Source: Flavobacteriaceae bacterium (GTDB lineage Bacteria; Bacteroidota; Bacteroidia; Flavobacteriales; Flavobacteriaceae). Taken from it: a stretch of 64,000 nucleotides of DNA. Each line of letters starts with the position of its first letter. Position 1 is the first letter of the stretch. The position numbers and the translations under genes were made by a program. The notes beneath the pieces were generated by a model. The model did no database searches. It saw only the letters and a list, made by a program, of their open reading frames with translations, and was not told where the DNA came from. The DNA lies in NCBI GenBank assembly GCA_016649715.1, contig JAENXC010000014.1:33813-97812 (forward strand), read 5' to 3'. Of the stretch, positions 6,420-51,897 are shown piece after piece.

Positions 6420-6592
6420 ATCCCAAAATTCAAGCATTAAATCCCAAACCCGCCTGCCGGACGGGCAGGTAAATCCCAAATCTTAAAAACCAAATTCCAA
6501 TGAGCAATTCTTTGGAATTTGGTTTTTTTTGTTTTTTGAATTTTTACTTTTGAGATTTATTTGGAATTTGGAGTTTGTTATTTGGAATTTTT
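6420..6592. repeat. Inverted array of AAATCCC/AAATTCC-type short repeats carrying a 21-bp palindromic cassette at 6449-6469
   Basis: Left arm has AATCCCAAA/AAATTCCAA units and right arm has TTGGAATTT units; cassette is CCCGCCTGCCGGACGGGCAGG. Confidence 0.7.
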
Positions 6593-6647
6593 CCCTTTGT
6601 ATTTTGTAATTTCGTACCTCCAAAAAATTAAGACTTAAACACAAAAA

Positions 6648-8024
6648 ATGAGCAAATACGACATAATAGTTTTAGGAAGCGGTCCCGGCGGCTATGTTAC
6701 CGCAATCAGGGCTTCACAACTCGGTTTTAAGACCGCCATTGTTGAAAAGGAAAGCCTTGGGGGCGTTTGTTTAAACTGGGGTTGCATCCCTACAAAAGCA
6801 CTTTTAAAGAGCGCGCAGGTTTTTGATTATCTAAAACACGCCGACAGTTACGGACTTATCGTAAAGGATTTCGATAAAGATTTCGGAAAAGTAGTGGAAA
6901 GAAGCCGCAACGTTGCAGATGGAATGAGCAAAGGCGTTCAGTTTTTGATGAAAAAGAATAAAATTGACGTAATCAATGGCTTCGGAAAAATTAAACCCGG
7001 AAAGAAGATTGACGTTGACGGAAAAGAATATTCCGCAGACCATATAATCATTGCCACCGGCGCGCGTTCTCGCGAATTGCCAAACTTAAAGCAAGACGGC
7101 AAAAAGGTGATTGGCTACCGCGAAGCAATGACTTTAAAAACGCAACCCAAAAGTATGATTGTTGTGGGCAGTGGCGCCATTGGCGCTGAGTTTGCACATT
7201 TTTACAATTCTATGGGAACTGATGTTACTATTGTTGAATTTCTCCCAAATCTTGTTCCCTTGGAAGACGAAGACGTTTCAAAACAATTTGAGCGTTCCTT
7301 CAAAAAAGCGGGAATTAAAGTAATGACCAATTCATCCGTAGAAAAATTGGACACTTCCGGAAAACTGGTAAAAGCTACCGTAAAAACTTTCAAAGGCGAA
7401 GAAATATTGGAAGCCGAAATCGTGCTTTCTGCAGTTGGTATTGCTACAAATATTGAAAATATAGGCCTTGAAGAAGTAGGTATTGTAACCGATAAAGGAA
7501 AAGTAATAGTGAATGATTGGTACCAAACCAACATTCCCGGCTATTATGCCATTGGCGATATAACGCCCGGTCCTGCCCTAGCCCACGTTGCTTCGGCTGA
7601 AGGAATTACCTGTGTTGAAAAAATTGCTGGCCTTCACGTTGAACCTATAGACTACGGAAATATTCCCGGCTGTACTTACGCAAGCCCAGAAATTGCAAGC
7701 GTTGGGATGACCGAAAAGCAAGCAAAGGAAGCGGGCTACGAACTTAAAGTTGGTAAATTCCCCTTCTCTGCCAGTGGAAAAGCAAGTGCTTCCGGTGAAA
7801 AGGACGGTTTTGTAAAAGTAATTTTTGATGCAAAATACGGCGAATGGCTGGGCTGCCATATGATTGGCGCCGGCGTAACCGATATGATTGCCGAAGCTGT
7901 TTTGGGACGAAAACTAGAAACCACAGGCTACGAAGTGCTAAAAACAATCCACCCGCACCCAACAATGAGTGAAGCCGTGATGGAAGCCGTTGCCGATGCT
8001 TATGGGGAAGTGATCCACTTATAG
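6648..8024 (+). CDS. lpdA: Dihydrolipoyl dehydrogenase (E3)
   Basis: GSGPGGY FAD-binding motif, GGVCLNWGCIPTK redox disulfide, GSGAIG, and HPHPTMSE C-terminus. Confidence 0.97.
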   Translation: MSKYDIIVLGSGPGGYVTAIRASQLGFKTAIVEKESLGGVCLNWGCIPTKALLKSAQVFDYLKHADSYGLIVKDFDKDFGKVVERSRNVADGMSKGVQFLMKKNKIDVINGFGKIKPGKKIDVDGKEYSADHIIIATGARSRELPNLKQDGKKVIGYREAMTLKTQPKSMIVVGSGAIGAEFAHFYNSMGTDVTIVEFLPNLVPLEDEDVSKQFERSFKKAGIKVMTNSSVEKLDTSGKLVKATVKTFKGEEILEAEIVLSAVGIATNIENIGLEEVGIVTDKGKVIVNDWYQTNIPGYYAIGDITPGPALAHVASAEGITCVEKIAGLHVEPIDYGNIPGCTYASPEIASVGMTEKQAKEAGYELKVGKFPFSASGKASASGEKDGFVKVIFDAKYGEWLGCHMIGAGVTDMIAEAVLGRKLETTGYEVLKTIHPHPTMSEAVMEAVADAYGEVIHL

Positions 8025-8064
8025 ACGTAAGACCGCTTCGCTATAAGACGTAAGACATAAGACT

Positions 8065-8091
8065 AAAAAAGCTCCAACTCGGAGCTTTTTT
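8065..8091. terminator. Bidirectional terminator between lpdA and aroQ
   Basis: AAAAAAGCTCC-AACTC-GGAGCTTTTTT. Confidence 0.85.
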
Positions 8092-8109
8092 TATTTATCA
8101 AAAATGGTT

Positions 8110-8174
8110 CCTTCCCCTTTTTCAGGGGAAGGTGGATTTCAAATCGCTTTTCGCGATTTGAAAGACGGAAGGGG
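8110..8174. repeat. REP-like nested palindrome (CCTTCCCC...GGGGAAGG...GACGGAAGGGG)
   Basis: Outer CCTTCC/GGAAGG arms with inner hairpins CCCCT..AGGGG and TTTCAAATCGC..GCGATTTGAAA; abuts the aroQ stop. Confidence 0.65.
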
Positions 8175-8591
8175 TCATTTCAAAAAACTCTGCAAAGCCA
8201 ACTCATAACTCTGCAGCCCAAATCCAATAATAACTCCCTTTGTATAAGGCGAAATATAGCTTTTGTGCCTAAAATCCTCTCTTGAAAAAGTGTTGGAAAT
8301 ATGAACTTCCACAACGGGCGTGGATATGGCTCTCACCGCGTCTGCAATGCCTACGGAAGTATGGGTATAAGCCGCAGCGTTCAGAATGATGCCATCATAC
8401 CCATAGCCTACTTCCTGAATTTTATCGATTAATTCCCCTTCAATATTCGACTGAAAATAGGAGATTTCCTGGTTTGCGTACTTCTTCTGCAATTTTTCAA
8501 AAAAATCGTTGAAGGTTTCGTTTCCGTAAATGTCGTTTTCGCGCTTACCGAGCAGGTTTAGGTTTGGGCCGTTGATGATGATGATTTTCAT
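8175..8591 (-). CDS. aroQ: Type II 3-dehydroquinate dehydratase
   Basis: True start MKIIIINGPNLNLLGKRE at 8591; QSNIEG, NAAAYTHTS and VEVHISN motifs. Confidence 0.96.
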   Translation of the reverse strand: MKIIIINGPNLNLLGKRENDIYGNETFNDFFEKLQKKYANQEISYFQSNIEGELIDKIQEVGYGYDGIILNAAAYTHTSVGIADAVRAISTPVVEVHISNTFSREDFRHKSYISPYTKGVIIGFGLQSYELALQSFLK

Positions 8592-8658
8592 ATCGTAAAT
8601 ATATAAAATAAAAAAAGCAGGAACATTGCTCCTGCTTTTATAAAGTGAATCAGATGAT

Positions 8659-9306
8659 TTAAAAAGAATATCCTGAAGAAACTTGGAAGACGTTGTTTTT
8701 TCGTTTATATGTAGTTTCATTATAAATAGGTTCATCTCCTCCATCATAATAAAAGATTGAAGTATCATTAATATTAGAAATGCCTTTATTGAATCTCAAA
8801 CTAAAAAACACTCCATTTTTTAAACGATAACTTGCACCAATACCCATGGCAAGTTCGATTGACTTATAGCCGTCCTTTACGTCCATTTTATCTGTTCCAT
8901 CAGAATCTTCATACTTAGATTTGGCCGAAACTAAAACACCTACTTGGGGCCCAAGTTCTACACTAAGCCCTTCTATAATGTAATATTTCGCCATTACGGG
9001 AACGTTGATGTAATCAAGTGATACATGAGAGTTATAATCTTCATCATACCCCAAATAACTATTGTATTTATAACCCTGGGAAGAATATAAAAGCTCGGGC
9101 TGTATGGCAAACTTGCCAACTAGTGGGATTTCAACCAAACCGCCTAGGTGAAAACTTAATCGAGGGTCGAAACCATCAACGTAATCGCCACCAAGGGAAG
9201 CTACGTTAAGGCCGGCTTTAACCCCAAATCTGATTTTGCCTTCTTGGGCGGTTGAGTTTGCATATACAAAAATTGCAAATGCCATAAAAAGTAAAAGTTT
9301 TTTCAT
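8659..9306 (-). CDS. Outer-membrane beta-barrel (porin family, PorT/OMP_b-brl_2-like), copy 3
   Basis: Signal peptide; FGVKAGLN, IQPELLYSSQG and YINVPVM motifs; terminal aromatic GYSF. Confidence 0.85.
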   Translation of the reverse strand: MKKLLLFMAFAIFVYANSTAQEGKIRFGVKAGLNVASLGGDYVDGFDPRLSFHLGGLVEIPLVGKFAIQPELLYSSQGYKYNSYLGYDEDYNSHVSLDYINVPVMAKYYIIEGLSVELGPQVGVLVSAKSKYEDSDGTDKMDVKDGYKSIELAMGIGASYRLKNGVFFSLRFNKGISNINDTSIFYYDGGDEPIYNETTYKRKNNVFQVSSGYSF

Positions 9307-9438
9307 AATTAAATAACTTTAAAGATTAGTGATATAAAAATAATCAAAGGTTTCAGAGTGTGTAAAAAAGATTCACTTTCTACAACAAAAAAGCAGGAAA
9401 ATAATTTCCTGCTTTTGTACAATTTAAACGTTTAAACT

Positions 9439-10077
9439 CTAAAACGAATATCCTGCTGAAATTTGGAAAACGTTGTTTTGGTTTTTATAGCTATACTTGT
9501 AATAATTATCTCCATCGTAATATTCGACATCATCGTCAGAAATATCCATTAAACCTTTGTTAAATCTTAAGCTAAAGAAAACCCCATTATTTAAACGATA
9601 ACTTGCGCCAATGCCTATTGCAACATCTAGAGAATTAAAATCATCTTTTGCATCAACATCGAAAGAACCATCTTCATCATCACCTTTGTACTTTGCATTC
9701 ACAAGAATTCCAATTTGTGGTCCAAGTTCAACGCTTAAGCCTTCTATTATATAATATTTCCCCATAATCGGAACATTTATATAGCCTAGTATCATTTTTT
9801 CTTCATAATCTCCTAAATCAATTCCCATATAACTTCCGTATTTGGCACCTTGGGAAGAGTATAAAAGTTCAGGTTGAATAGCAAATTTTCCAGCCAATGG
9901 AATTTCCACTAAACCACCTACGTGGAAACCAACGAGTGGATCTAATGCACCAACGTTATCACCTCCAATGGAAGCAATGTTTACACCCGCTTTAAAACCA
10001 ATTCTAAATTCGCCTTGGGCGTTTGAGTTTGCAAAAGCAAAAATTGCAACTGCAACAAAAAGTAATAATTTTTTCAT
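9439..10077 (-). CDS. Outer-membrane beta-barrel (porin family), copy 2
   Basis: Same motifs (GFKAGVN, IQPELLYSSQG, YINVPIM, GYSF); close paralogue of 8659-9306. Confidence 0.85.
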   Translation of the reverse strand: MKKLLLFVAVAIFAFANSNAQGEFRIGFKAGVNIASIGGDNVGALDPLVGFHVGGLVEIPLAGKFAIQPELLYSSQGAKYGSYMGIDLGDYEEKMILGYINVPIMGKYYIIEGLSVELGPQIGILVNAKYKGDDEDGSFDVDAKDDFNSLDVAIGIGASYRLNNGVFFSLRFNKGLMDISDDDVEYYDGDNYYKYSYKNQNNVFQISAGYSF

Positions 10078-10204
10078 AATTAAAAGTTTTTAAGATTAGT
10101 GGTTAAAAATAGTAAAAAACATTGGATTAAGCCAAATGAATCTTAAAACAGATAAAAAAAAACCGCCCAGATCAGGCGGTTTTAATAATTGATATTTCAA
10201 GTTT

Positions 10205-10753
10205 TTATAGAAAAGAATAACCCAATGCTACTGAAAACACATTATTCTTACTTTTCGTATATCCCAAAACATCAGTAAAACCAAAGCTATAACGGGTGTC
10301 CAATCTAATTCCAAAAGGGAAATCATATCCTGCGCCAACTACCCCAGAAATAGCACTCTTTTCAGCATCTATTTTGCCAAGGCCTCCGCCATAATTTATC
10401 TGATAAACTTCGTCCTTAACGATAAAGCCGAATTGCGGTCCAACTTGAAGGTTTAGACCTTTTATAAGATATACCTTCAGTACCACAGGAATATTTATAT
10501 AATTTAAATCAAATTTACTTGCATTAAACTCCGCGCCTTGTTGCGAATACAGAACATCTGCCTGAATCCCAATCTTATCGCCAAATTTTATTCCCGCAAA
10601 AACCCCGGCCTGAAAACCAGTCTTGTTGGAAAGATTATCAATATCTGAAATTTGTGAAAAGTTAACCCCAGCTTTCACTCCAAGATCCAGTTTCTGCGAA
10701 AAAGCGGCGGCTCCAATACACATCGCAATAAGTGCTACAATTAATTTTTTCAT
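10205..10753 (-). CDS. Outer-membrane beta-barrel (porin family), copy 1, more divergent
   Basis: GVKAGVN, LYSQQG, YINIPV and GYSFL motifs. Confidence 0.85.
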   Translation of the reverse strand: MKKLIVALIAMCIGAAAFSQKLDLGVKAGVNFSQISDIDNLSNKTGFQAGVFAGIKFGDKIGIQADVLYSQQGAEFNASKFDLNYINIPVVLKVYLIKGLNLQVGPQFGFIVKDEVYQINYGGGLGKIDAEKSAISGVVGAGYDFPFGIRLDTRYSFGFTDVLGYTKSKNNVFSVALGYSFL

Positions 10754-10862
10754 AATAGTAAGTTTTTGAGTTTTCGATTAAACGTAAAGATACCCTTAAT
10801 GTTATAGGGTAAAATACATTTAGTTTTTTGTTAACTATTGTTTTTAGTGGTAATATAGCGGT

Positions 10863-11768
10863 ATGAAGTGGCAAGCAGTTTTAAAGGATTACCAAAACTA
10901 CCTCCGTTTGGAGCGTGGGCTTTCGGAAAATTCCATCATCAACTATTCATTGGACGTAAAAAAATTGATGCGATGGCTCGAAACCAATGGGATGGACATT
11001 TCGCCAATTTCAATTTCGGAAGAAACGCTGCAACAATTTATTTATGAAATTGCCAAAAAAGTGAATCCTCGTTCCCAAAGTCGCCTCATCTCTGGGCTGA
11101 AAGGTTTTTTCAATTATCTGATTTTTGAAGATTACCGAAAAACAAATCCGCTGGAACTCATTGAGTCCCCAAAACTGGGAAGAAAACTGCCAGACACACT
11201 TGCCGTGGAAGAAATTGACGCAATGATTGGCGCCATAGACCTAGGTTCAAAACAAGGCGAACGCAACCGTGCCATCCTCGAAACCCTTTACGGTTGCGGC
11301 CTGCGCGTTTCGGAACTTACAAACCTTAAAATTTCCGATCTTTTTTTTGAAGAAGGTTTTATAAAAGTAACGGGCAAAGGCGATAAACAGCGCTTGGTTC
11401 CCATTGGACCCACTACTGAAAAATACATCAATATTTATAGGAAGGAAATCCGCGTGCACCAAGAAATCCATCCGCTGGCAAAAGACACCGTTTTCCTAAA
11501 CCAACACGGAAAACCACTTACTCGCGCAATGATATTTACTATCGTAAAACGTTTGGCTGTAAAAGCAGGTATTCGCAAAACCATCAGTCCGCACACCTTT
11601 CGCCATTCCTTCGCCACCCATCTTTTGGAAAACGGCGCCGATCTTCGCGCCATCCAGCAAATGCTCGGCCACGAAAGCATTACTACTACCGAAATATACA
11701 CACATATAGACCGAAGACATTTAACGGAAGTTATTAATAAGTATCATCCAAGAAAGGAAGCCCCCTAA
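10863..11768 (+). CDS. xerD: Chromosomal site-specific tyrosine recombinase XerD
   Basis: N-terminal SAM-like domain; LYGCGLRVSEL, GKGDKQR, HTFRHSFATH and LGH...TTEIY catalytic motifs; housekeeping context next to aroQ and rny. Confidence 0.88.
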   Translation: MKWQAVLKDYQNYLRLERGLSENSIINYSLDVKKLMRWLETNGMDISPISISEETLQQFIYEIAKKVNPRSQSRLISGLKGFFNYLIFEDYRKTNPLELIESPKLGRKLPDTLAVEEIDAMIGAIDLGSKQGERNRAILETLYGCGLRVSELTNLKISDLFFEEGFIKVTGKGDKQRLVPIGPTTEKYINIYRKEIRVHQEIHPLAKDTVFLNQHGKPLTRAMIFTIVKRLAVKAGIRKTISPHTFRHSFATHLLENGADLRAIQQMLGHESITTTEIYTHIDRRHLTEVINKYHPRKEAP

Positions 11769-11879
11769 CCCCCAAGCCCCCGAAGGGGGAACTTCTACTA
11801 TTGCGAAAAAACAAAAAGCTCCTAAAGGAGCTTTTTTATTGGGTTTGAGTAAGAGTTCCCCCTTCGGGGGCTAGGGGGA
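11761..11879. repeat. Inverted pair of CCCCCTAACCCCC..GAAGGGGGAAC REP-like elements enclosing a bidirectional terminator (11814-11836)
   Basis: Left arm 11761-11792 and right arm GTTCCCCCTTCGGGGGCTAGGGGGA at 11855-11879; terminator AAAAGCTCC-TAAA-GGAGCTTTT lies between them. Confidence 0.75.
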
Positions 11880-11881
11880 CT

Positions 11882-13444: not shown

Positions 13445-13472
13445 TTTTAGTTGAGTTATATGTATAAAAAAA

Positions 13473-13635
13473 GCCTACATCAATATATTTATTTTGAATA
13501 AACTCCTTAAAATGAATGTTTAGGGCTAACAAGCTGGTCAAGTATCCGCTCTAAGACGGCGCGCTTTTACAACTTCAACTCACCCTTTTTAAAGAATTCC
13601 TGTTGAGTTTACCAAAAATGAATATTAATGTAGGC
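13473..13635 (-). ncRNA. ssrS: 6S RNA (Flavobacterial type) between zapA and rny
   Basis: Ends pair (GCCTACATCAATAT at 13473 with AATATTAATGTAGGC at 13621-13635), forming a long rod followed by a U-tract on the minus strand. Position downstream of zapA is the known 6S synteny. Confidence 0.72.
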
Positions 13636-13661
13636 AGTAACCTTATTTAATTTAAAGAACG

Positions 13662-13952
13662 TTATGATAGCTGCTCCTGCAGCAAACGGTCCAAAGCCAT
13701 TAGCTTTGTTTCTGTTTCCTGCGTGTCGCTGGAGTTATCAATTTGTTTTTGCTCTACCTGGGCGGCAAACTGGAGGGCACACATGGCCAAAACATCCTGT
13801 TTGTCGCGGACGGCATAACTTTGCTCGAACTTTTTAATCATTTCTTCTATCTTTTTGCTCGCCAACCGCAATCCTTCTTCCTGCGAAGGGTTGATGGTCA
13901 AGGGATAAACCCTGTCTGCAATTGATATTTTTATTTTTAATGGTTCGGCCAT
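13662..13952 (-). CDS. zapA: Cell division protein ZapA
   Basis: Start MAEPLKIKISIADRVYPL at 13952; YAVRDKQDVLAMCALQFA motif. Confidence 0.92.
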   Translation of the reverse strand: MAEPLKIKISIADRVYPLTINPSQEEGLRLASKKIEEMIKKFEQSYAVRDKQDVLAMCALQFAAQVEQKQIDNSSDTQETETKLMALDRLLQEQLS

Positions 13953-13963
13953 TGTTATATTTT

Positions 13964-18581: not shown

Positions 18582-18632
<51 letters not shown>

Positions 18633-20870: not shown

Positions 20871-21047
20871 GCCACGAATTCACGAATTGAAAATGTTTAT
20901 GTGGGCGTGATGGAGCCACGAATTCACGAATAAAAAAGTATAATCATTCGTGAATTCGTGGCAAAACTTCCACAACAACCCAAAAACATTAGTGAATTCG
21001 TGGCAAAAAACATCCACAACAACCAAAAACATTCGTGAATTCGTGGC
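20871..21047. repeat. Cluster of five 17-bp GCCACGAATTCACGAAT REP-like units (two forward, three reverse)
   Basis: Units at 20871, 20915 (forward) and 20946, 20988, 21031 (reverse); the last three lie in 42-43-bp tandem repeats. Confidence 0.9.
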
Positions 21048-21949: not shown

Positions 21950-22039
21950 ATTGGGGATTCGTTAATTCGGGATTCGAGGATACTACCTACTACCCTTCTA
22001 AAAACTCCCCACTAAAAACTACCCACTACCCACTAAAAA

Positions 22040-24733: not shown

Positions 24734-24821
24734 GAGAAAGATCCCTCTCCATCGAGGATTTTTAATTTTCCCATAATTAAAAAAACGGCTCCGAAAATAT
24801 CGGGGCCGTTTTGATTTTAGT

Positions 24822-24910
24822 CTCAGCGAAACTCTGTGGCTCTCTGCGCTTTCTCTGCGTAACAGCTATAACACAGAGTTTCACAGAGAAAGCGCAGTGT
24901 TTCACAGAGA
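24822..24910. repeat. Inverted CTCTGCG/CTCTGTG versus CACAGAG/CGCAG REP-like array
   Basis: CTCTGTGGCTCTCTGCGCTTTCTCTGCGT faces ACACAGAGTTTCACAGAGAAAGCGCAGTGTTTCACAGAG, next to terminator 24781-24812. Confidence 0.7.
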
Positions 24911-29050: not shown

Positions 29051-29362
29051 TATTTTTAAAAATGGACTTAGGACGAAAGGACTTAAGACGTAGGACAATT
29101 TTGATTTCATAATAATATTTATTGATTATCCGCAATTAGCCAGAAATCTAAGCCCATGTTGATTTTGTCATTCCGACGCAGGAGGAATCTCATTAAGTTT
29201 CAACATATTGTTGAATTTGATTCACATATTCCTAAATACCAATTAGGCCATTATGATTGAATACGGACATTCAAATAATATTATTACATTTTTTTAGTAT
29301 TATACATGTCCGCCGTAGGATGATCCAATGTCAAAAAGACTTAAGTCAGTTAAAATCAAATT

Positions 29363-30545: not shown

Positions 30546-30683
30546 GAAATTGAAGTTGTTGTTGAAGTTGAAGATGAAGATGAAAAGTCCCCTAACCCCC
30601 ATGGGGGAATCAACGCCTGCCCCCTGTATGAGGAATCTCGAATTAACAAATTAACGAATCCCTAATCCCTAATCCCTAAAAAA

Positions 30684-33639: not shown

Positions 33640-33698
33640 GCTCCCTAACCCGCGGCGGCGGGGTACTCTTGCTCAAATATACACCTGTTTTTAAAGCA

Positions 33699-34060: not shown

Positions 34061-34342
34061 CACCGAAGCTTTAGCGAAGGGGCATCACTCGAACTCCGAA
34101 GCTCTTTGTGCATCGTAGCTTTAGCGTAGTTGCATAGCGAAGGGGTTCAAATAGTTAAAAATAAACCACATTGGATTGAAGTGCAATATATTTTTAAAAC
34201 AGACTGAAAGCCTGCCTTGCCGGCAGGCAGGTCTGTTAAATTCGTAAAAATAAAAACACTACCAGCTGTGGAAATATTTTCAACAGAAGAATAGATTAGT
34301 GATAACCTGCCTGCCGACAGGCAGGTTCGTGCTATTCGTGGC
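34061..34342. repeat. Repeat-filled fumC leader
   Basis: GAAGCTTTAGCGAAG-type palindromes at 34061-34144; CCTGC..GCAGG cassettes at 34211-34231 and 34306-34325; TTCGTG..ATTCGTGGC unit at 34326-34342. Confidence 0.75.
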
Positions 34343-35827: not shown

Positions 35828-35873
35828 ACCACGAATTCACGAATACTTATATAAGTATTCGTGAATTCGTGGT
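35828..35873. repeat. Perfect 46-bp palindrome of two GCCACGAATTCACGAAT-family units
   Basis: ACCACGAATTCACGAATACTTAT followed by ATAAGTATTCGTGAATTCGTGGT, between convergent fumC and ccsA. Confidence 0.92.
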
Positions 35874-39063: not shown

Positions 39064-39245
39064 TACGGTAAATTTTGGAGCAAATTTATACAATTGCACC
39101 CATTTAAGCTACAAAAAACACATAGGACTTGATAACGTAAGACATAAGGTTATTTTCAAAACAACAAATTGGAGCTTAAGCAATTTATTCATCTTACGTC
39201 CTATGTCTTTCTGCCTTAAGCCTTTTAAAAGAAGGATTACTGGCC

Positions 39246-39995: not shown

Positions 39996-40013
39996 TTATG
40001 AGGCAAATCATAA
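39996..40013. promoter_or_regulatory. CRP/FNR-type palindromic operator in the divergent promoter
   Basis: TTATGA-GGCAAA-TCATAA has the N6 spacing of the CRP site TGTGA-N6-TCACA. Confidence 0.6.
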
Positions 40014-40605: not shown

Positions 40606-40726
40606 AAAAAAAGAGCAAAGAGAAAAGAGAAAAGAGCAGAGAGAAAGTGAAAGTAAAAATTTAGAACTGTAAGTTCTTTATTCTTTTCTCTTTATTCTCT
40701 ATTCTAAAAAACGCTAACTTCGCACT

Positions 40727-41479: not shown

Positions 41480-41545
41480 GCCACGAATTCACGAATAAAA
41501 TATATTTTGATTCGTGTACCTGTCCGCCGGAGGAGGATTCGTGGC
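41480..41545. repeat. REP pair whose right arm is split by a cassette
   Basis: GCCACGAATTCACGAAT...ATTCGTGTA[CCTGTCCGCCGGAGGAGGA]TTCGTGGC. Confidence 0.8.
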
Positions 41546-43146: not shown

Positions 43147-43151
43147 GAACA

Positions 43152-43297
43152 GTCGAAGAATGTCACCCTGAGCAGCCTGTCCTGAGCGGAGTCGAAGGGC
43201 AGTCGAAGAATGTCACCCTGAGCGCAGTCGAAGGGTTGAACCTTGAATATTGAATATTGAATATTGAATATTGAATATTGAATATTGAATATTGAAT
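43152..43297. repeat. Duplicated and self-nested GTCACCCTGAGCGCAGTCGAAGGG elements followed by (TTGAATA)7
   Basis: Two AGTCGAAGAATGTCACCCTGAGC units, the first interrupted by AGCCTGTCCTGAGCGGAGTCGAAGGGC; heptamer run at 43243-43297. Confidence 0.88.
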
Positions 43298-43303
43298 TTA
43301 TAT

Positions 43304-44862: not shown

Positions 44863-44869
44863 AATTGCT

Positions 44870-45433
44870 ATGATAAACCTAAAAGAATATTACCCAGAAC
44901 TCATTGAATCCGGAATACTACTCTTGGTTGTGCTACTGTTGCGGTTTATCCTAAAAAGAACCGTCCGCAACTTCGCCAAAAAAATTGAACGGCTGGAGCA
45001 CCGTACCGGTTTGATTATGAAACACGTAGATTTTGCGATCTTCTTTATATTAGTCTTTGGCTTTATATTGATTTGGGGTGTTGACTTTAGGAATGTGGGT
45101 GTTGTAATGTCCTCAGTTTTTGCGGTTATCGGGATTGCATTTTTTGCGCAATGGTCCATTCTCAGCAACGTCACCAGCGGCGTGATTATGTTTTTCACCT
45201 TTCCCTATAAAATTGGCGATTACATAAAAATCCACGATAAAGAAATGCCCTGCGAAGGTATTATTGAAGACATCAAAACGTTTCACATCATCCTTCACAC
45301 CACCACCAACGAAATCATAACCTATCCCAATAGTATGATGCTCCAGAAAGGTGTGAGCATTATTAAACCCGAGGAGTTTTATGAGCAGCAAAACGAACTC
45401 GATAAAAATAAGGAAGAATTGCCCCACGATTAA
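44870..45433 (+). CDS. Small-conductance mechanosensitive channel family protein
   Basis: Three TM segments; LSNVTSG...PYKIGDYI and TYPNS MscS beta-domain motifs. Confidence 0.87.
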   Translation: MINLKEYYPELIESGILLLVVLLLRFILKRTVRNFAKKIERLEHRTGLIMKHVDFAIFFILVFGFILIWGVDFRNVGVVMSSVFAVIGIAFFAQWSILSNVTSGVIMFFTFPYKIGDYIKIHDKEMPCEGIIEDIKTFHIILHTTTNEIITYPNSMMLQKGVSIIKPEEFYEQQNELDKNKEELPHD

Positions 45434-45486
45434 TTTTCACAAATAGGTATCTTTGATGGGTTTCGTACAATTCAGATATATATTTT

Positions 45487-48018
45487 ATGCAAAGAACATC
45501 TTTTTCACGACTTCTATTTTTATTTTTCGCAATAGCAGCTACCGCTCAAACCCCTAAAAAACTTACCACTTCCGAAATATATCACGATCTCCAAAAACTT
45601 AATTTTGTGGGTTCTGCACTCTATATTGCGGCTCATCCCGATGATGAAAATACACGCCTGATTTCCTATTTGGTAAATGACGTGCAAGCAAACACTGCCT
45701 ATCTTTCCATCACCCGTGGCGATGGCGGACAAAATTTGGTTGGCCCCGAATTGCGTGAACTGCTCGGAGTTATCCGCACGCAGGAGCTTTTGGCAGCGCG
45801 AAGAACCGATGGCGCCCAACAATTTTTTACACGTGCCAATGATTTTGGCTACAGCAAAAACCCCGATGAAACTTTTGAGTTTTGGAACCGAAACGATGTT
45901 TTGAGCGATGTTGTGCAGACCATCCGAAAATTCAAACCGGATATTGTAATAAACCGTTTTGACCATCGCAGCCCAGGTAGCACCCATGGCCACCACACGG
46001 CTTCGGCAATGTTGAGCGTAGAGGCTTTTGATTTGGTTGACAATCCTTCAAAATTTCCAAGATCTGCGGAAACTTATGGCGTTTGGAAACCGCAGCGACT
46101 GTTTTTCAATACTTCGTGGTGGTTCTACGGAAGCAAGGAAAAGTTTGATAAAGCCGATAAATCGAAACTCGTTTCGGTGGAAACCGGAAACTTTTTTCCT
46201 TCCCTCGGACTTTCCAATGGCGAAATCGCATCGCTCAGCCGAAGTATGCACAAATCGCAGGGGTTTGGAAGCACGGGCTCGCGCGGGGCGGAAACCGAAT
46301 ATTTGGAATTATTGGAAGGCTCAAAACCTTCCGACAATAATTTATTCGAAGGAATAAACACCAATTGGTCGCGACTTGAGGGGGGAAAGGAAATTGGTGC
46401 TATCTTAAATCCCTTGGAAGAAAATTTCAACTTTAAAAATCCTTCAGAAATGCTTCCGCAGTTGTTGAAAGTGTATCCAATGGTTTCAAATTTGAAAGAT
46501 GCGCATTGGCGAAACATAAAACTGGAACAACTGAAACAGCTCATTTTGGATTGCGGCGGAATCTTCATTGAAGCCGCTTCCGAAGAAAATTCGGTAAACC
46601 CGAACGAAAATTTCAAAGTAAATATTGAAGCCATCAACCGTGGAAAAGAAGCTATTGTTCTAAAATCGGTTAAAAATTCCGAAGCCGTGCCTGCCGGCTT
46701 GCCCGCCGGGGAGGGCAGGCAGGGTAAAATTCTTTGGAATGAATCCGCAACACTTCCCTTTAATGAAGATAAAAAACTGGAAATAACAGTTAATTCGGGA
46801 ACTCACGATCCAAAATATTCTTCGCCTTATTGGCTGAACGATAAAGGAACCGTCGGAATGTACGTTGCCCCCGAAGCGTTGATTGGTCTGCCTGAAACCC
46901 CGCCGCTGGAGCAATTGGTTTTCGAGCTTCAATTTGGAAACACAACAATTCCATTTACAAAAAACATAATTTATAAATTCAACGATCCCGTGAAAGGGGA
47001 AGTCTATCGCCCGTTGGAAGTATTGCCCGAAGTCACCGCTTCCATCCCTGAAAAGGTCTTGATTTTCGCCAGCAACGCCCCTGAAAATGTTTCTGTAATC
47101 GTTCGTGCTGGGAAAGACAATATTTCTGGAAATGTGAGCTTGCAGCATCCCGAGGGTTGGAAAGTTGAGCCTGCACAGCAATCATTTCAGCTAAACAGAA
47201 ATGGCGAATCAAAGACATTCAGTTTCAAAGTAACCCCGCCGAACAGTCAAAGTGAGGGCTATTTAAAACCATTGGTAAATGTGGAGGGCCAAACTTTTGA
47301 TAAGGAATTGATAACTATCAATTACGAACACATTCCGTATCAAAGCGTGTTGTTACCCTCGGAAGCGAAAGTTGCGAAGATTGATATTCAGAAAAAAGGT
47401 CAAAACATAGGCTACATCAACGGTGCGGGCGATGCCATTCCTGAAAGTTTGATACAGATTGGCTATTCCGTAAGCACGATCGACCCTTTGACTATTTCAG
47501 AAAAAAACCTTCAGAATTTTGATGCAATCGTTGTCGGAATTCGTGCGTATAACACCGTTCCCGAATTGGCTTTTGTGCAACCAATTTTGAATAAATACGT
47601 TGAAAACGGCGGAACGATGATAGTTCAATACAACACCAGCCAGGCTTTGGTTACTGAAAATCTCGCCCCTTATTCACTAAAACTCTCGCACGACCGAGTA
47701 ACCGATGAGTTTTCGGAGGTAAAAATGCTCGCCCCGGAAAATCCATTATTGAACACGCCCAATAAAATAACCCAAAAAGATTTTGAAGGCTGGGTACAAG
47801 AACGCGGACTCTATTTTCCGAACGAGTGGGCGAAGGAATTCACGCCAATCCTCGGAATGCACGACAAAAGCGAAGCCCAAACAAAAGGTTCGTTGCTCGT
47901 ATCTAAATACGGAAAAGGGTATTATATTTATACAGGCTTGAGCTTTTTCCGCGAACTTCCCGCTGGCGTTCCCGGAGCTTATAGATTGTTTGCGAATATG
48001 CTTTCTGTGGGGAAATAA
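45487..48018 (+). CDS. Exported PIG-L/LmbE family deacetylase with Ig-like (NEW3-like) and C-terminal GATase-like domains
   Basis: Signal peptide; AHPDDEN, TRGDGGQN, DFGYSK and HGHH; -7 element TATCTTTG at 45448-55; contains a 13-aa palindromic insert. Confidence 0.9.
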   Translation: MQRTSFSRLLFLFFAIAATAQTPKKLTTSEIYHDLQKLNFVGSALYIAAHPDDENTRLISYLVNDVQANTAYLSITRGDGGQNLVGPELRELLGVIRTQELLAARRTDGAQQFFTRANDFGYSKNPDETFEFWNRNDVLSDVVQTIRKFKPDIVINRFDHRSPGSTHGHHTASAMLSVEAFDLVDNPSKFPRSAETYGVWKPQRLFFNTSWWFYGSKEKFDKADKSKLVSVETGNFFPSLGLSNGEIASLSRSMHKSQGFGSTGSRGAETEYLELLEGSKPSDNNLFEGINTNWSRLEGGKEIGAILNPLEENFNFKNPSEMLPQLLKVYPMVSNLKDAHWRNIKLEQLKQLILDCGGIFIEAASEENSVNPNENFKVNIEAINRGKEAIVLKSVKNSEAVPAGLPAGEGRQGKILWNESATLPFNEDKKLEITVNSGTHDPKYSSPYWLNDKGTVGMYVAPEALIGLPETPPLEQLVFELQFGNTTIPFTKNIIYKFNDPVKGEVYRPLEVLPEVTASIPEKVLIFASNAPENVSVIVRAGKDNISGNVSLQHPEGWKVEPAQQSFQLNRNGESKTFSFKVTPPNSQSEGYLKPLVNVEGQTFDKELITINYEHIPYQSVLLPSEAKVAKIDIQKKGQNIGYINGAGDAIPESLIQIGYSVSTIDPLTISEKNLQNFDAIVVGIRAYNTVPELAFVQPILNKYVENGGTMIVQYNTSQALVTENLAPYSLKLSHDRVTDEFSEVKMLAPENPLLNTPNKITQKDFEGWVQERGLYFPNEWAKEFTPILGMHDKSEAQTKGSLLVSKYGKGYYIYTGLSFFRELPAGVPGAYRLFANMLSVGK
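46684..46722. repeat. 39-bp nested palindromic cassette inserted in frame in the PIG-L gene
   Basis: GCCGTGCCTGCCGGCTTGCCCGCCGGGGAGGGCAGGCAG encodes AVPAGLPAGEGRQ; very GC-rich within AT-rich flanks. Confidence 0.8.
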
Positions 48019-48069
48019 GTTGTTAAAAGGAAGGGATTTTCGTATTTTTAAAAATTAAATATAAGGATT

Positions 48070-48291
48070 ATGGAAACATTGAGCGTCAAAATTTTAAATC
48101 CGGAAGCAAAAAGGCTTTTAAAGGAAATGGTCGATAAGGATTTGATTGAAATTGAGGATTCTAAAAAGGAATTCTTAGAACTTCTGAATCGATTGCAAAG
48201 TAATTCCAAAAACGCTCCTACACTCGAAGAAATCACGAAGGAAGTGGAAATAGTGAGAAAAGCGAGATATGAGCAAGAAAATAATCGTTGA
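48070..48291 (+). CDS. Putative antitoxin (73 aa)
   Basis: Overlaps the PIN gene by 23 nt; C-terminal PTLEEITKEVEIVRKARY helix; typical type II antitoxin size. Confidence 0.65.
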   Translation: METLSVKILNPEAKRLLKEMVDKDLIEIEDSKKEFLELLNRLQSNSKNAPTLEEITKEVEIVRKARYEQENNR

Positions 48292-48682
48292 TACCAACTT
48301 ATGGATAAGTTTTTTAATAACCAAAAAGTATCAAACTTTTAAAAAGCCTATCATTTCCAATAATATAACCATACTTTTTTCTTCCCAATCCATAACGGAA
48401 TTTTGGGATGTTTCTCGTAGACCACATTTCGAAAAATTATTTCCATTAGAAGAGGTAAATATTTTGTTTGCGGTTTTTAAAGTATTCGGTATCCAAATAA
48501 AACCAACTTCTAATTTAAAAATTTGCCGTGACGAAAAAGACAACTTTCTTCTTAATTTAGCCATTGACGGCAAAGCCGATTATTTAATTACTGGAGACAA
48601 AGATTTACTGATACTCAAAAAAGTTGGGAATACTAAAATTCTTACCTATTCAGAATTTACTGGAGAAATGAACCAAAAATAA
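48269..48682 (+). CDS. PIN-domain putative toxin (PIN_3/TIGR00305-like)
   Basis: IIVDTNLWIS, CRDEKDNFLLNLA and YLITGDKDLL acidic PIN motifs. Confidence 0.88.
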   Translation: MSKKIIVDTNLWISFLITKKYQTFKKPIISNNITILFSSQSITEFWDVSRRPHFEKLFPLEEVNILFAVFKVFGIQIKPTSNLKICRDEKDNFLLNLAIDGKADYLITGDKDLLILKKVGNTKILTYSEFTGEMNQK

Positions 48683-48796
48683 ATGATGGACAACCAATCC
48701 CAAAAATTCACCTGGAAATGGAGCTACACCATAGTTCTCCTGCTCAATGCTGCTTATATCTATCTGTTTTATTTACTAATGCAAAACTTCACATAA
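48683..48796 (+). CDS. 37-aa single-TM protein translationally coupled to the sodium symporter; missed by the ORF track
   Basis: MMDNQSQKFTWKWSYTIVLLLNAAYIYLFYLLMQNFT; its TAA (48794-96) directly abuts the symporter ATG at 48797. Confidence 0.75.
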   Translation: MMDNQSQKFTWKWSYTIVLLLNAAYIYLFYLLMQNFT

Positions 48797-50497
48797 ATGC
48801 AGCAGATTGACTGGATTGTTTTAATCGGGACCCTTCTTTTCATCGTTCTTTACGGCACCTGGAAATCGCGCCGACAAAAAAACGTGGAAGATTATTTAAA
48901 AGGTGGCAATACTGCGCATTGGTGGACAATTGGGATAAGTGTTATGGCTACCCAAGCCAGTGCCATTACCTTTCTTTCCACGCCAGGTCAGGCCTTTCAC
49001 GACGGGATGGGCTTTGTGCAGTTCTATTTCGGATTGCCAATTGCAATGGTGATAATCTGCTTGGTTTTCATCCCCATTTATCACAAACTGAAAGTTTTCA
49101 CCGCTTACGAATATCTCGAAACCCGTTTCGACAAAAAAACACGCACCCTCACCGCAATCCTCTTTTTAATACAGCGCGGACTTGCCTGCGGCATCACCAT
49201 TTTTGCGCCCTCCATTATCCTTTCGGCTGTATTGGGTTGGAACTTGATTTATTTGAATATCATTATCGGGGTGCTCGTAATCATCTACACCGTGAGCGGC
49301 GGTACCAAGGCCGTAAGCGTTACCCAAAAACAACAAATGGCAGTTATTTTCTTCGGAATGTTGATTGCCTTTTTATTGATTTTAAATTATTTACCGCTGG
49401 ATATTATCTTCTCCAAAGCCCTCGAAATTGCTGGCGCGAACGGCAAAATGGACATACTCGATTTTTCGTTCAATTTTGATAACCGCTACACTTTTTGGAG
49501 CGGCATTATTGGCGGAAGCTTTTTGGCCCTCTCCTACTTCGGCACTGACCAAAGCCAAGTGCAGCGCTACCTTTCGGGCAGAAGTGTGAAGCAAAGCCAA
49601 ATGGGTTTAATAATGAACGGTTTGCTAAAAGTGCCTATGCAGTTTTTTATATTATTGGTGGGAATTATGGTTTTCGTTTTTTACCAATTTAACGCTTCTC
49701 CACTACACTTTAACCCTTCCGCAGTAAAAGATGTTAAGAAATCTGAATACGCCGGTGAATACAAGGCTTTGGAAGTGAAAAAAGAAGCCATTGACAAAGA
49801 ACTCGCAGCGACTCAGATAAGTTATTCAAAAGCGGAAAATGATTTAGAAAAACAAAACTATGTTCAGGAGATAAAGGAATTGAACACTTCCGAAAATAAA
49901 TTGCGGGAACAATCGGTTTCACTAATCAAAAAAGCCAATCCGAATGCCGAAACCAACGATAAAGATTACGTTTTTATACATTTCATTTTAACCAATCTTC
50001 CGCGCGGGTTGATCGGTTTGCTGCTGGCCGTAATTTTAAGCGCGGCCATGTCCTCCACCGCTTCGGAACTCAACGCTTTGGGCAGCACAACAACTATTGA
50101 CCTTTACAAAAGGAACGTGCCCGGAAAACGCGAAAAACATTATGTGGCGGCTTCTCGGGGTTTTACCCTGCTATGGGGCATCATTGCAATAGTCGTGGCC
50201 TGTTCGGCACATTTGTTCGACAACCTTATTCAACTCGTAAACATCATCGGTTCTATTTTCTACGGAAATGTTTTGGGTATTTTCCTGCTTGCTTTCTTTA
50301 TAAAATATGTGCGCAGCAAAGCAGTTTTTATTGCGGCCTTGATTACCCAACTTATTATAATCTACGTTTGGTATATTGACCTAATGCCCTATTTATGGCT
50401 GAATTTGGTGGGTTGTGCCTTGGTTATGGGAATTGCGGTTTTGCTTCAGATTTTACTGCCGAAGAATAATCGGGAAATTATAGTTTTGAAAGAATAA
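48797..50497 (+). CDS. Sodium:solute symporter family transporter
   Basis: SVMATQASAITF, YEYLETRF, GTDQSQVQRY and AAMSSTASELN SSS motifs. Confidence 0.93.
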   Translation: MQQIDWIVLIGTLLFIVLYGTWKSRRQKNVEDYLKGGNTAHWWTIGISVMATQASAITFLSTPGQAFHDGMGFVQFYFGLPIAMVIICLVFIPIYHKLKVFTAYEYLETRFDKKTRTLTAILFLIQRGLACGITIFAPSIILSAVLGWNLIYLNIIIGVLVIIYTVSGGTKAVSVTQKQQMAVIFFGMLIAFLLILNYLPLDIIFSKALEIAGANGKMDILDFSFNFDNRYTFWSGIIGGSFLALSYFGTDQSQVQRYLSGRSVKQSQMGLIMNGLLKVPMQFFILLVGIMVFVFYQFNASPLHFNPSAVKDVKKSEYAGEYKALEVKKEAIDKELAATQISYSKAENDLEKQNYVQEIKELNTSENKLREQSVSLIKKANPNAETNDKDYVFIHFILTNLPRGLIGLLLAVILSAAMSSTASELNALGSTTTIDLYKRNVPGKREKHYVAASRGFTLLWGIIAIVVACSAHLFDNLIQLVNIIGSIFYGNVLGIFLLAFFIKYVRSKAVFIAALITQLIIIYVWYIDLMPYLWLNLVGCALVMGIAVLLQILLPKNNREIIVLKE

Positions 50498-50591
50498 ATA
50501 GCTTGTCAGTTCGAGCGCAGTCGAGAACCGTCAACAGGTCTCAACTTTAGTTTATCCCGAGTTCAGTTAAAAAAACACGACCATAAGTATA

Positions 50592-50629
50592 ATTCGTGAA
50601 CCTGCCCGTCCGGCAGGCGGGTTCGTTGC
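50592..50629. repeat. REP unit split at GAA|TTC by a 21-bp cassette
   Basis: ATTCGTGAA[CCTGCCCGTCCGGCAGGCGGG]TTCGTTGC; the cassette is the exact reverse complement of 6449-6469. Confidence 0.85.
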
Positions 50630-50634
50630 TAAAA

Positions 50635-51678
50635 TTATTTTCTAAAAACCAATTTAGAAATCCTATTGTTTCCCGAAGCAAAAGCAACGCTGTCATTCAC
50701 AAATTCAATAGCGAAAAACCCTTCTTTTGAAAGCTCTTTCCAATTCTTTCCACCGTCGCTACTAAATGAAATACCTGGTGAGCCTACGGCCACAATGCCC
50801 TGCCCCTCCGTTCCCGGAATGTATTTTACGGAGGAACGATACCCCGGTTCTTTGCCATTGGCAATCAGTTTCCACGTTTTTCCTCCGTTCTTGGTTATCG
50901 CTTTATTTCCTTCGTTAAATGATTTGTCCTCCCAATTTCCACCAAATATAATTCCGTTGTCTGCATCTAAAAAATCAATACTGTAAATTCCCGTCATTGC
51001 TTTCCCCTGAATTATTGGGGTGTCAAAAATCTCCCATGTTTCCCCTTTGTCGGCAGTGTGCATAACCCGCGATTTCTTTCCGCCAGTTGCTACCCAAGCG
51101 TTATCACCAAAAATAGCGATGTTGCTATTGCTTGCTGCAAAGGCAGCTTCTCCCCTTTCTGCTTTTGGAAGGTTTTCACACGACAATTTTTTCCATGTAT
51201 TTCCGCCATCGCGGGTAATGATTACGGACATACAGTTTTCAATGGGGTCGCCAATGGCAATACCTTCGTTTTCGTTCCAAAATTTCATGGAATCGTAAAA
51301 AACATTTTCGCCCTTTTCGTTGTAAACCTCTTCAATATTGGTAGCTTCGCTTCCGTTGAACCCAATTTTATAAAGCACCGCGGGATTGGCGATGCTCAAT
51401 ACAAAAACAGCTTCCTTCGTAGCCGCAAGGGATCGGAAATGAAGCAACGAATCGCCGTATTTAATAATCGCAAGTTTCGGGGTGTCGCCATCAATCAAAC
51501 CCACTTTTCCTTTGTCGGCCGCAAACCAAACTCTGTTTTCGTCCAAAGGCTGAATGGCGCGAATGCTCAGACTATCTATAAAAACAGGGGTGATTTTTAC
51601 GGAATTGAATTCAATTTCAGTTTTCTTTTCACAGGAAATGAAGGTTAAAACGGCAAGCAGGATAAAGACGAATCGCAT
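50635..51678 (-). CDS. BNR/Asp-box beta-propeller lipoprotein (YCF48-like)
   Basis: Lipobox FISC; Asp-box repeats TRDGGNTW, TADKGETW, TKNGGKTW and SSDGGKNW. Confidence 0.85.
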   Translation of the reverse strand: MRFVFILLAVLTFISCEKKTEIEFNSVKITPVFIDSLSIRAIQPLDENRVWFAADKGKVGLIDGDTPKLAIIKYGDSLLHFRSLAATKEAVFVLSIANPAVLYKIGFNGSEATNIEEVYNEKGENVFYDSMKFWNENEGIAIGDPIENCMSVIITRDGGNTWKKLSCENLPKAERGEAAFAASNSNIAIFGDNAWVATGGKKSRVMHTADKGETWEIFDTPIIQGKAMTGIYSIDFLDADNGIIFGGNWEDKSFNEGNKAITKNGGKTWKLIANGKEPGYRSSVKYIPGTEGQGIVAVGSPGISFSSDGGKNWKELSKEGFFAIEFVNDSVAFASGNNRISKLVFRK

Positions 51679-51861
51679 TTTTTAAATTTTTGCCAAAAGT
51701 AAGGATTCTAAAATTCCAAATAACAAATTCCTCCCGAAGTCTCGGGACCAAATTTTATTTCTGAATTTATTTTTTTGATTTCGATTTCAGTTTCGATTTC
51801 AGTTTCAAAGAGATACCTTTGCTACCGCAAAAGTTTTCAAACATCAAATACTTTAAAATTA

Positions 51862-51897
51862 GCCACGAACCTGCCTGCCGGCAGGCAGGTTCGTGGC
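51862..51897. repeat. Perfect 36-bp palindrome of REP half-arms around a cassette
   Basis: GCCACGAA[CCTGCCTGCCGGCAGGCAGG]TTCGTGGC in the leader of the RsmB-family gene, after a -7 element TACCTTTG (51814-21). Confidence 0.88.

Follow-up and report, generated by a model that had tools for sequence, protein, structure and literature searches.

The 64,000-nucleotide (nt) stretch of contig JAENXC010000014.1 from a Flavobacteriaceae bacterium that is analysed here, hereafter called the window, has a G+C content of 40.7% and contains housekeeping genes, with XerD, RNase Y, an Smr-domain protein and a PIN toxin as the only enzymes acting on nucleic acids. Scattered over it are short GC-rich palindromes, termed cassettes, which had been predicted from the letters of the window alone to represent a mobile mini-element. 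All seven copies and the relic listed in this original prediction are present when the sequence is checked, and they are summarized in Table 1 together with two host hairpins that contain no cassette. The copies are palindromic and GC-rich as predicted, but they do not form a single type, because at least two sequence families are present. Family 1 (CCTGCC..GGCAGG) consists of CCTGCCTGCCGGCAGGCAGG, its one-off variants and a 21-mer subfamily, CCTGCCCGTCCGGCAGGCGGG, with two copies in the window. The copy at 6449 is the exact reverse complement of that at 50601 (0 mismatches), as had been noticed before. Family 2 (TCCGCC-GGA/GGTA-GGCGGA) is represented by the copy at 41519 and by the relic, which has 2 mismatches to the core of the 41519 copy. 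The pattern CC[TC]GCC-N4-12-GGC[AG]GG occurs 6 times in the window, whereas 200 simulations with a first-order Markov model give 0.085 occurrences on average and never more than 1. A stricter pattern with fixed spacing is not significant by itself in the window (3 matches versus 1.1 expected).

The canonical 20-mer folds into an 8-bp stem with a CCGG loop (-8.0 kcal/mol with DNA parameters). All six of its frames are free of stop codons, and in-frame copies are therefore tolerated by selection. A scan of the window against Rfam gives no match at the cassettes. The copies outside the gene lie in spacers that are likely transcribed. The inverted repeat around the 51870 copy has 22-nt arms with 95% complementarity, and the DNA hairpin formed by this copy and its host palindrome (51859-51900, -21.8 kcal/mol) is located between a TACCTTTG motif and the rsmB start. 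We take this motif to be the -7 promoter box of Bacteroidetes; if it is, the copy lies in the 5' untranslated region (UTR) of rsmB. The 6449 copy is bracketed by two AAATCCCAAA direct repeats. The 34211 copy is located at the 3' edge of a small hairpin loop (AACAGAC..GTCTGTT), the outer stem of which is retained (-13.0 kcal/mol). The 41519 cassette lies inside the right arm of a host hairpin, in which GCCACGAATTCACGAAT..ATTCGTG precedes and TTCGTGGC follows the cassette. The 46684 insertion is an outer family-1 cassette, the centre of which is split by 18 nt (GGCTTGCCCGCCGGGGAG). A further isolated GC-rich palindromic island, CCCTAACCCGCGGCGGCGGGGTACTC, is found at 33643-33668 directly after the stop codon of a TonB-dependent receptor gene, and may be a member of a further cassette family.

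Table 1. Cassettes and cassette-free host hairpins of the window
Feature	Position	Strand	Location and remarks
Family-1 21-mer, reverse orientation, CCCGCCTGCCGGACGGGCAGG	6449-6469	-	30 nt past msrB stop
Empty host hairpin GCCACGAATTCACGAAT(14 nt)ATTCGTGAATTCGTGGC	20915-20962	n/a	17-nt arms, 100% complementary
Degenerate family-2 relic GTCCGCCGTAGGATGA	29308-29323	+	Spacer upstream of DUF6452 gene
Family-1 copy with one extra T, CCTGCCTTGCCGGCAGGCAGG	34211-34231	n/a	Upstream of fumarase gene
Family-1 copy with one substitution, CCTGCCTGCCGACAGGCAGG	34306-34325	n/a	Flanks GTGATAA / TTCGTGCTATTCGTGGC
Second empty host hairpin ACCACGAATTCACGAATACTTATATAAGTATTCGTGAATTCGTGGT	35828-35873	n/a	27-nt arms, 100% complementary
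Family-2 cassette CCTGTCCGCCGGAGGAGGA, core GTCCGCCGGAGGAGGA	41519-41537	+	Operon spacer
In-frame 39-nt insertion GCCGTGCCTGCCGGCTTGCCCGCCGGGGAGGGCAGGCAG	46684-46722	+	Inside 843-aa PIG-L-family gene
Family-1 copy of 21-mer subfamily, CCTGCCCGTCCGGCAGGCGGG	50601-50621	+	Flanks ATTCGTGAA / TTCGTTGC; spacer of convergent SSF transporter and BNR-repeat genes
Family-1 canonical 20-bp perfect palindrome, CCTGCCTGCCGGCAGGCAGG	51870-51889	n/a	Spacer upstream of rsmB; exact centre of 16-bp host palindrome, between GCCACGAA and TTCGTGGC

Empty sites and insertion points

The window comes from an Aequorivita species (Flavobacteriaceae). Its 843-aa PIG-L-family protein shows 74-86% identity to Aequorivita proteins, and the 23 kb around the gene is syntenic with Aequorivita genomes at ~70-84% nucleotide identity. 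Four permafrost metagenome runs (X1-X4) contain the window sequence almost word for word. A contig of a related strain in run X5, which is ~93% identical to the window as estimated from a word share of 0.14, does not contain 17+2 nt at 41517-41536, and the host sequence ATTCGTGAATTCGTGGC is thereby restored. This comparison is scorable at 41519 only, and the related-strain contigs end or diverge at 34211/34306, 46684, 50601 and 51870. The insertion at 46684 adds 13 in-frame residues (AVPAGLPAGEGRQ) to a loop that is NSE-GK in every Aequorivita ortholog, and a 45-nt stretch spanning it is matched, except for 1 position, by a contig from an unrelated wastewater run. At 41519, 50601 and 51870, the spacers of other Aequorivita species are short and lack both the host repeat and the cassette; at the 51870 site of these relatives, the TACCTTTG motif is followed by ATG almost at once. 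The empty site in X5, the orthologs without the 39 nt and the cassette-free host repeats indicate that the cassette is an insertion and not an invariant part of a larger repeat, as the original prediction had it.

The insertions are real, strain-variable and lineage-specific. No cassette is found in the syntenic loci of relatives, and 80 other Flavobacteriaceae loci (1.66 Mb) contain no family-1 copy within two edits, as compared with 3 strict family-1 copies and 5 variants in the 64 kb of the window. GC-rich palindromes in an AT-rich context are rare in relatives (3 in 237 kb), and none of them belongs to the cassette family. Contigs from the same metagenomes as the window carry more copies, such as a cassette between GAA and TTCGTGGCAAAA, and the 21-mer directly after ATTCGTGAA in another GCCACGA..ATTCGTGAA hairpin. 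Between window positions 40000 and 54000, Logan contigs from the source runs X1-X4 stop at cassettes (46710, 50621 and 51891 are examples), and short-read assemblies are thus broken up by these palindromes.

Insertion at a fixed point of a host repeat, which had been proposed for most copies, is observed for four of them (34306, 41519, 50601 and 51870), and those at 6449, 34211 and 46684 are sited otherwise. The four fixed-point copies have ..GTGAA (or GTGATAA, GTGTA or CACGAA) on the left and TTCGTG(G/C/T) on the right, and the insertion point of the host repeat is located between GTGAA and TTCGTGGC. The hairpin at 20915, in which GAA is joined to TTC, serves as the reference for an unoccupied target. 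Three different cassette variants, which include both families, share one point of the host repeat, and therefore represent independent hits on a preferred site rather than a co-propagated composite repeat. No target duplication is detected in the window, in agreement with the original prediction, or at 157 sites elsewhere.

The proposal that the cassette targets stem-loop DNA as a parasite of repeats resembling repetitive extragenic palindromes (REPs) fits the window and the orphan tRNA halves described below, where insertions are found in hairpins and at palindrome centres, but its support is weak in a broad sample. At 101 independent low-GC sites, stem/loop junctions are mildly enriched (8.9% versus 3.5%, p = 0.015, 2.7-fold). 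Tests of hairpin-loop targeting with perfect stems and with minimum free energy folds give weak results, and the junction class alone is significant. The possibility that the flanks extend the cassette hairpin is rejected, because complementarity of the immediate flanks is at the chance level. No target consensus is found at these sites beyond a depletion of T at -1 and of A at +1, an excess of GG/CC and the absence of TA, which is the target dinucleotide at 0 of the 101 sites. GG/CC flanks, which leave an ambiguity of 1 nt at the junction, are enriched 2.8-fold. Copies that survive in frame need 18, 21 or 39 nt, and this requirement fits the excess of G/G (C/C) flanks and the presence of 21-nt variants. 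Several nested copies split an older cassette at or near its centre. This is clear at 46684 in the window and at L085 (L numbers designate loci and contigs elsewhere) and is also seen at L167, L186, L217 and L254, in a list that is qualitative and restricted to centre splits, since a position scan is confounded by intact copies.

Occurrence elsewhere and linkage to GIY-YIG genes

The exact sequence CCTGCCTGCCGNCAGGCAGG is present in at least 120 metagenome contigs, which are mostly AT-rich (G+C 0.29-0.50) and come from many habitats. The 20-mer is found in 39 viral contigs, as compared with 0, 0, 0 and 2 for four control palindromes of the same composition. The cassette is shared across phyla and with phage contigs. 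Families 1 and 2 are both found again at unrelated metagenome loci, with relatives of family 2 in L104, L112 and L253. At ~100 independent low-GC sites, 29-38% of the cassettes lie in long stop-free frames, as compared with 73-86% of random positions. Long frames read through 18 of 102 sites (~18%), 14 of them as LPAGRQ, and the genes read through include those for AtpA, SecA, PheS and the P-type ATPase CopA. Four exact copies are located in an ordinary chromosomal region at L146 (FtsK, RecA, EF-P), which contains no candidate enzyme. No paper was found in the literature that describes the 20-mer, its halves or LPAGRQ in this sense. The metagenome 20-mer is often located in the loop of GTCAYYCTGAGC..GAAGRRTGAC-type hairpins (L082, L100, L142, L167, L177 and L180). 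In viral contig L237 (3916-4105), a 21-nt cassette-like unit, CATGCCTACCGGCAGGCAGGC, forms a head-to-tail array of at least 10 repeats.

The open reading frames (ORFs) of ~160 cassette loci were clustered, the 15 largest recurrent clusters were inspected and only some were annotated. The most recurrent neighbour is an 80-90-aa GIY-YIG protein, which is encoded at 10 loci. It matches PF01541 at 57-67 bits (cut-off 22.6) and belongs to UPF0213 (PDB relatives 1zg2 and 1ywl), a family with at least 7,870 homologues, including those from Flavobacteriaceae. Its closest characterised relative is SLX1 (E = 4e-9, versus 0.008 for I-TevI). Six loci have a common layout, in which an orphan 5' tRNA half is followed by a spacer of 15-50 nt, the GIY-YIG ORF and an intact tRNA gene. 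The orphan half contains one or two cassettes within its D-arm, usually between A21 and G22, and the 5' half of the intact tRNA repeats the orphan without the cassette. Orphan 3' tRNA pieces with cassettes in the T-arm also occur. These loci are not cassette-interrupted tRNA genes, because removal of the cassette restores no tRNA; the orphan fragments are therefore leftover halves beside intact genes.

A second set of loci was retrieved independently of the cassette, by the protein sequence of GIY-YIG homologues. A GC-rich palindromic insert is present in the orphan arm of every tRNA-linked example of this set. The exact 20-mer is located between GGTA and GAGC of tRNA-Asn in L249, L250 (in tandem), L251, L253 and a Nitrospirae metagenome-assembled genome (MAG), L261, and a different GC-rich insert occupies the same point in L252. 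The tRNA-His elements (L242-L247), the protein of which is named after a Daviesbacteria genome, contain composite inserts, and the same layout is found in several other metagenome contigs. In an uncultured Dokdonia, the exact 20-mer is located between GGATA and GAAT of an orphan tRNA-Arg, and a solo variant lies at a distance of 2.6 kb. A 58-nt nested composite is located between GGTTA and GAGT of an orphan tRNA-Met in Muricauda sp. SCSIO 64092, an isolate. The gene layout points to tandem reinsertion of the GIY element in L250 and L134. The cassettes are 20/20 identical in nine copies and the adjoining GIY ORFs show 56-85% nucleotide identity, indicating that the cassette is either constrained or renewed from active copies. 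Comparison of the metagenome runs of the window at L184 shows that the permafrost runs bearing the window also contain GGCCCCGTAGTTCAACGGATA, the 20-mer and GAATA in succession, an arrangement that resembles an orphan tRNA-Arg.

Co-occurrence of the cassette with a candidate mobilising enzyme, which the original prediction had proposed to examine, is thus positive for GIY-YIG. The cassette is tightly linked physically to tRNA-lodged SLX1-like GIY-YIG genes and is perfectly conserved there. Nothing was found in the literature on UPF0213/COG2827 elements in tRNA genes. In tRNA-Asp-linked GIY elements (L248, 1352-1500; L264, downstream of the GIY gene), the orphan T-arm is replaced by a different 19-nt GC palindrome, TCCCGTTCGGAGAACGGGA, indicating that the plug can belong to another sequence family. 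The GIY-YIG family also splits protein genes, at L257 (9835-10497, Cecembia lonarensis) and L258 (9129-10500, a Bacteroidetes MAG). One of the split genes encodes a 23S_rRNA_IVP four-helix bundle, and the other encodes a tyrosine recombinase and is cut just before the coding sequence of FATHLL. The arrangement of these genes points to homing-like behaviour outside tRNA genes.

Proposed mode of mobilisation and alternatives

The cassette was proposed to be a second-order, non-autonomous element mobilised in trans, with no mobilising enzyme encoded in the window. There is indeed no transposase, REP-associated tyrosine transposase (RAYT) or GIY-YIG gene among the ORFs of the window, and mobilisation in trans is supported by the size of the cassette, which is much too small for coding, by its insertions, by the absence of a transposase from the window and by its co-occurrence with GIY-YIG. 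The explanation that we favour, with a probability of about 0.5, is that the cassette is a non-autonomous mini-palindrome of 16-21 bp, which is ferried between genomes by GIY-YIG elements and probably inserted at nuclease-made breaks. As part of this explanation, the Aequorivita lineage would have been invaded recently, by copies inserted precisely, with the target bases neither duplicated nor lost. The dependence on the nuclease, the source of the inserted DNA and the chemistry of insertion are what we infer from the arrangement of the sequences.

According to this explanation, the vehicle and helper would be a small, free-standing SLX1-like GIY-YIG gene (UPF0213) that lodges in tRNA genes. 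The 5' half displaced by this gene would become the orphan and harbour the cassette in its D-arm. The structure-specific nuclease would nick or break DNA at hairpin or cruciform junctions and at palindrome centres. The break would then be filled by a cassette copy, which would be an excised hairpin or duplex or the product of short templated synthesis, and ligation would follow without duplication. The inserted GC hairpin would be transcribed and may also act as a REP-type RNA hairpin. Candidate DNAs for the action of the nuclease would be the 20-mer, the tRNA D-arm and GCCACGAATTCGTGGC. SLX1 is structure-specific and cuts junctions and stem-loops. Breaks made by an SLX1-like nuclease without a DNA-binding domain would account for the bias of the insertions towards palindrome centres, stem/loop junctions and orphan D-arms. 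For the GIY element, the cassette may destroy the cleavage site in the orphan, may interrupt a 33-nt direct repeat that would otherwise delete the gene, or may form a 5' leader hairpin of the GIY mRNA. Such roles and mobility are not mutually exclusive. A more specific version of this explanation, which we regard as doubtful though conceivable, is that the 20-mer is both cargo and substrate of a new mobility system, in which a nuclease consisting only of the catalytic domain would recognize DNA shape and cut, the 20-mer would be excised and re-ligated, and the nuclease gene would itself home to tRNA genes and take the cassette from one phylum to another. If so, it would be the smallest known transposable unit, moved by a structure-specific nuclease and host ligase without a transposase.

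Several observations weigh against ferrying and insertion of the cassette by the GIY-YIG element. There is no GIY-YIG gene in the 64-kb window, and the permafrost contig with GGCCCCGTAGTTCAACGGATA, the 20-mer and GAATA is assigned to no organism, Aequorivita included. The perfect 20-mer is found in none of 72,556 plasmids of cultured bacteria, which give chance partial matches in GC-rich replicons only. Location in hairpin loops is not enriched at the 101 sites (18.8% versus 14.5%, p = 0.24). GIY genes that split the integrase or 23S-IVP gene have no adjoining cassette. GIY-YIG nucleases hydrolyse DNA without forming covalent intermediates and are therefore unable to join DNA alone. The tRNA-Asn elements are related to one another, so that their cassettes may be inherited rather than independent. 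The link may also run the other way, such that the orphan halves are neutral hairpin-bearing DNA in which cassettes survive, or the GIY element may retain the cassette for its own benefit, as a hairpin in the 5' UTR, a block to deletion between the direct repeats or a means of destroying a cleavage site.

Template switching during replication or repair without a dedicated enzyme, in which a nascent strand that has stalled uses a GC hairpin at another place as its template and then switches back, with GIY elements and phages carrying the seeds between genomes, is an unlikely explanation. It fits the coexistence and nesting of several unrelated families of GC palindromes, the lack of target duplication and of a strong target consensus, the 2.8-fold enrichment of GG/CC flanks with their 1-nt ambiguity, and the coincidence of insertion points with other hairpins and palindrome centres in the Aequorivita genome. 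However, it leaves unexplained why one exact 20-mer dominates across phyla, why 20/20 identical cassettes are found beside GIY genes that have diverged by 15-44%, and why cassettes are strongly concentrated in D-arms beside these genes; moreover, relatives with similar hairpin repeats should show copies, but there are 0 in 1.66 Mb. The same lack of target duplication, together with a length of ~20 nt, a GC-rich hairpin structure, a location that is mainly extragenic and the precedent of REPs within genes (PMC3733652), would be accounted for by a REP-type element mobilised by a RAYT or an IS200/IS605-type HUH tyrosine transposase encoded elsewhere in the genome. Nevertheless, we consider this explanation quite improbable, because neither end has the unpaired GTAG or CGTC tag and copies are not paired as in REP doublets forming hairpins (REPINs) or bacterial interspersed mosaic elements (definition in PMC3733652), because there is no fixed 4-5-nt target and no such gene in the window, and because no transposase-like family is found in the 15 largest ORF clusters of the ~160 loci (only some annotated), the largest being GIY-YIG.

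Every copy in the window lies where transcription is likely, and the orphan tRNA half with its cassette would be the 5' leader of the GIY mRNA. These facts would suit an RNA-mediated route, in which hairpin transcripts enter other transcripts or DNA by ligation or reverse transcription, as proposed for GC clusters of yeast mitochondria (PMC4478555). This route is nonetheless very unlikely, because no reverse transcriptase is found among the recurrent neighbours or in the window, a perfect palindrome carries no strand information and no datum requires an RNA step. It is scarcely credible that the cassettes are immobile functional hairpins (terminators or operators) that arose in place, or artefacts of assembly or library preparation. 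The 20-mer is known solely from metagenome and MAG assemblies and a few isolate genomes, and Logan contigs break at palindromes; both facts speak for this reading. However, presence and absence differ by exactly the cassette, degenerate and nested copies exist, in-frame survivors in essential genes show a frame bias, a nested diverged cassette is present in a complete isolate genome (CP095413.1), and the matches come from differently sourced collections (JGI, ENA, NCBI and Logan). The hairpins are not followed by a T-run, indicating that they are not intrinsic terminators.

The association with GIY-YIG is a new, testable lead to the mobilising activity. If this link is true, the cassettes would constitute a class of mobile DNA that is widespread and, at ~20 bp, smaller than what repeat finders and annotators search for, and that rewrites spacers, 5' UTRs and even essential proteins (AtpA, SecA and PheS) in many uncultured lineages. 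It would also provide the very large UPF0213/GIY-YIG family with a testable function and the long-unexplained mitochondrial GC clusters with a bacterial counterpart, and it suggests how homing elements that regenerate their tRNA target handle the leftover half-gene. In practice, the cassette may be used as a strain-level marker in metagenomes and explains contig breaks at palindromes.

Other features of the window and comparison with known systems

Nearly all spacers of the window hold short word repeats or hairpins of other families (3820-3960, 8025-8174, 11769-11881, 21950-22039, 24820-24910, 29051-29200, 30546-30683, 39100-39245, 40606-40726 and 43147-43291). They include TAAGAC/TAGGAC words, CACAGAG/GCGCAG words, GTCACCCTGAGCGxAGTCGAAGGG hairpins, GTCATTCCGACGCAGGAGGAATC, pairs of CCCCCGAAGGGGG that bracket a terminator, and runs of CCCTAATCCC. 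Microsatellites are found between two genes ((AATA)n, 18590-18630) and beside two GTCACCCTGAGC hairpins ((TTGAATA)n, 43240-43291). The sole Rfam match in the window is 6S-Flavo RNA (RF01685, 97 bits) at 13500-13608 on the minus strand. An ORF for a PIN_3-domain (VapC-like) protein is located at 48269-48682, and the 250-nt stretch upstream of it appears to read as a small ORF (region 48019-48682). The small ORF possibly encodes an antitoxin, so that the two would form a toxin-antitoxin pair, which as such does not figure among the listed ORFs of 100 aa or more. Three tandem genes for outer-membrane beta-barrel proteins of the TDE1717 family (8659-10753, minus strand) form a local gene family. 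Three tandem ORFs of ~970-996 aa, two of them of exactly 972 aa, are located at 53315-62604 (minus strand), match one another at ~70% nucleotide identity and likewise form a local gene family.

The cassettes differ from intrinsic terminators in the absence of a T-run and in their positions, which are upstream of genes (51870 and 34306), in an operon spacer (41519) and within a gene (46684). They differ from miniature inverted-repeat transposable elements, which have terminal inverted repeats and a target-site duplication of fixed length, in that the whole cassette consists of two inverted halves of 10 bp, in that no duplication is found at 157 sites and in that empty sites are exact.

Like REPs and REPINs, the cassettes are short (20-40 nt) GC-rich hairpins, which are mostly extragenic, transcribed and non-autonomous, are inserted without target duplication and occasionally occur within genes. 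A REP is defined by an unpaired GTAG or CGTC tag at one end (PMC3733652). In contrast, the cassette begins with CCTGCC and ends with GGCAGG, has neither this tag nor a conserved flanking tetranucleotide, and is a perfect palindrome without an asymmetric head or inverted doublets. It is common to several phyla and is linked to GIY-YIG rather than to a tyrosine HUH enzyme; no RAYT gene is found in the window, and none belongs to the largest clusters of recurrent ORFs at the ~160 loci.

The palindromic elements of Rickettsia resemble the cassettes in that they are inserted in frame into protein genes and are tolerated as an extra peptide. These elements are ~100-150 bp long and are largely confined to Rickettsia and its close relatives, and to our knowledge they have no helper enzyme. 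The cassettes are about five to ten times smaller, add 6-13 residues and occur in many phyla.

The layout of the GIY elements is reminiscent of SegB of phages T4 and T6, a GIY-YIG gene in a tRNA cluster that is tied to breaks and recombination in tRNA DNA (PMC13096335), since in both cases the GIY-YIG gene lies between or inside tRNA genes. However, the genes described here encode UPF0213 proteins of ~85 aa with a catalytic domain and nothing else, for which SLX1 is a closer relative than I-TevI. They duplicate the 5' half of the tRNA, and the D-arm of the orphan carries a conserved palindrome of 20 bp. No such feature is described for Seg enzymes.

GC clusters of yeast and fungal mitochondria (e.g. 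GC42) are likewise GC-rich hairpins that are scattered in AT-rich DNA, vary among strains, merge or nest and occasionally occur in genes, and homing-endonuclease mobilisation has been proposed for them (PMC4478555). These clusters are 30-60 bp long, are accompanied by an AG target duplication and are confined to the organelle, whereas the cassettes are 16-21 bp long, are inserted without duplication and reside in bacterial chromosomes and phage contigs.

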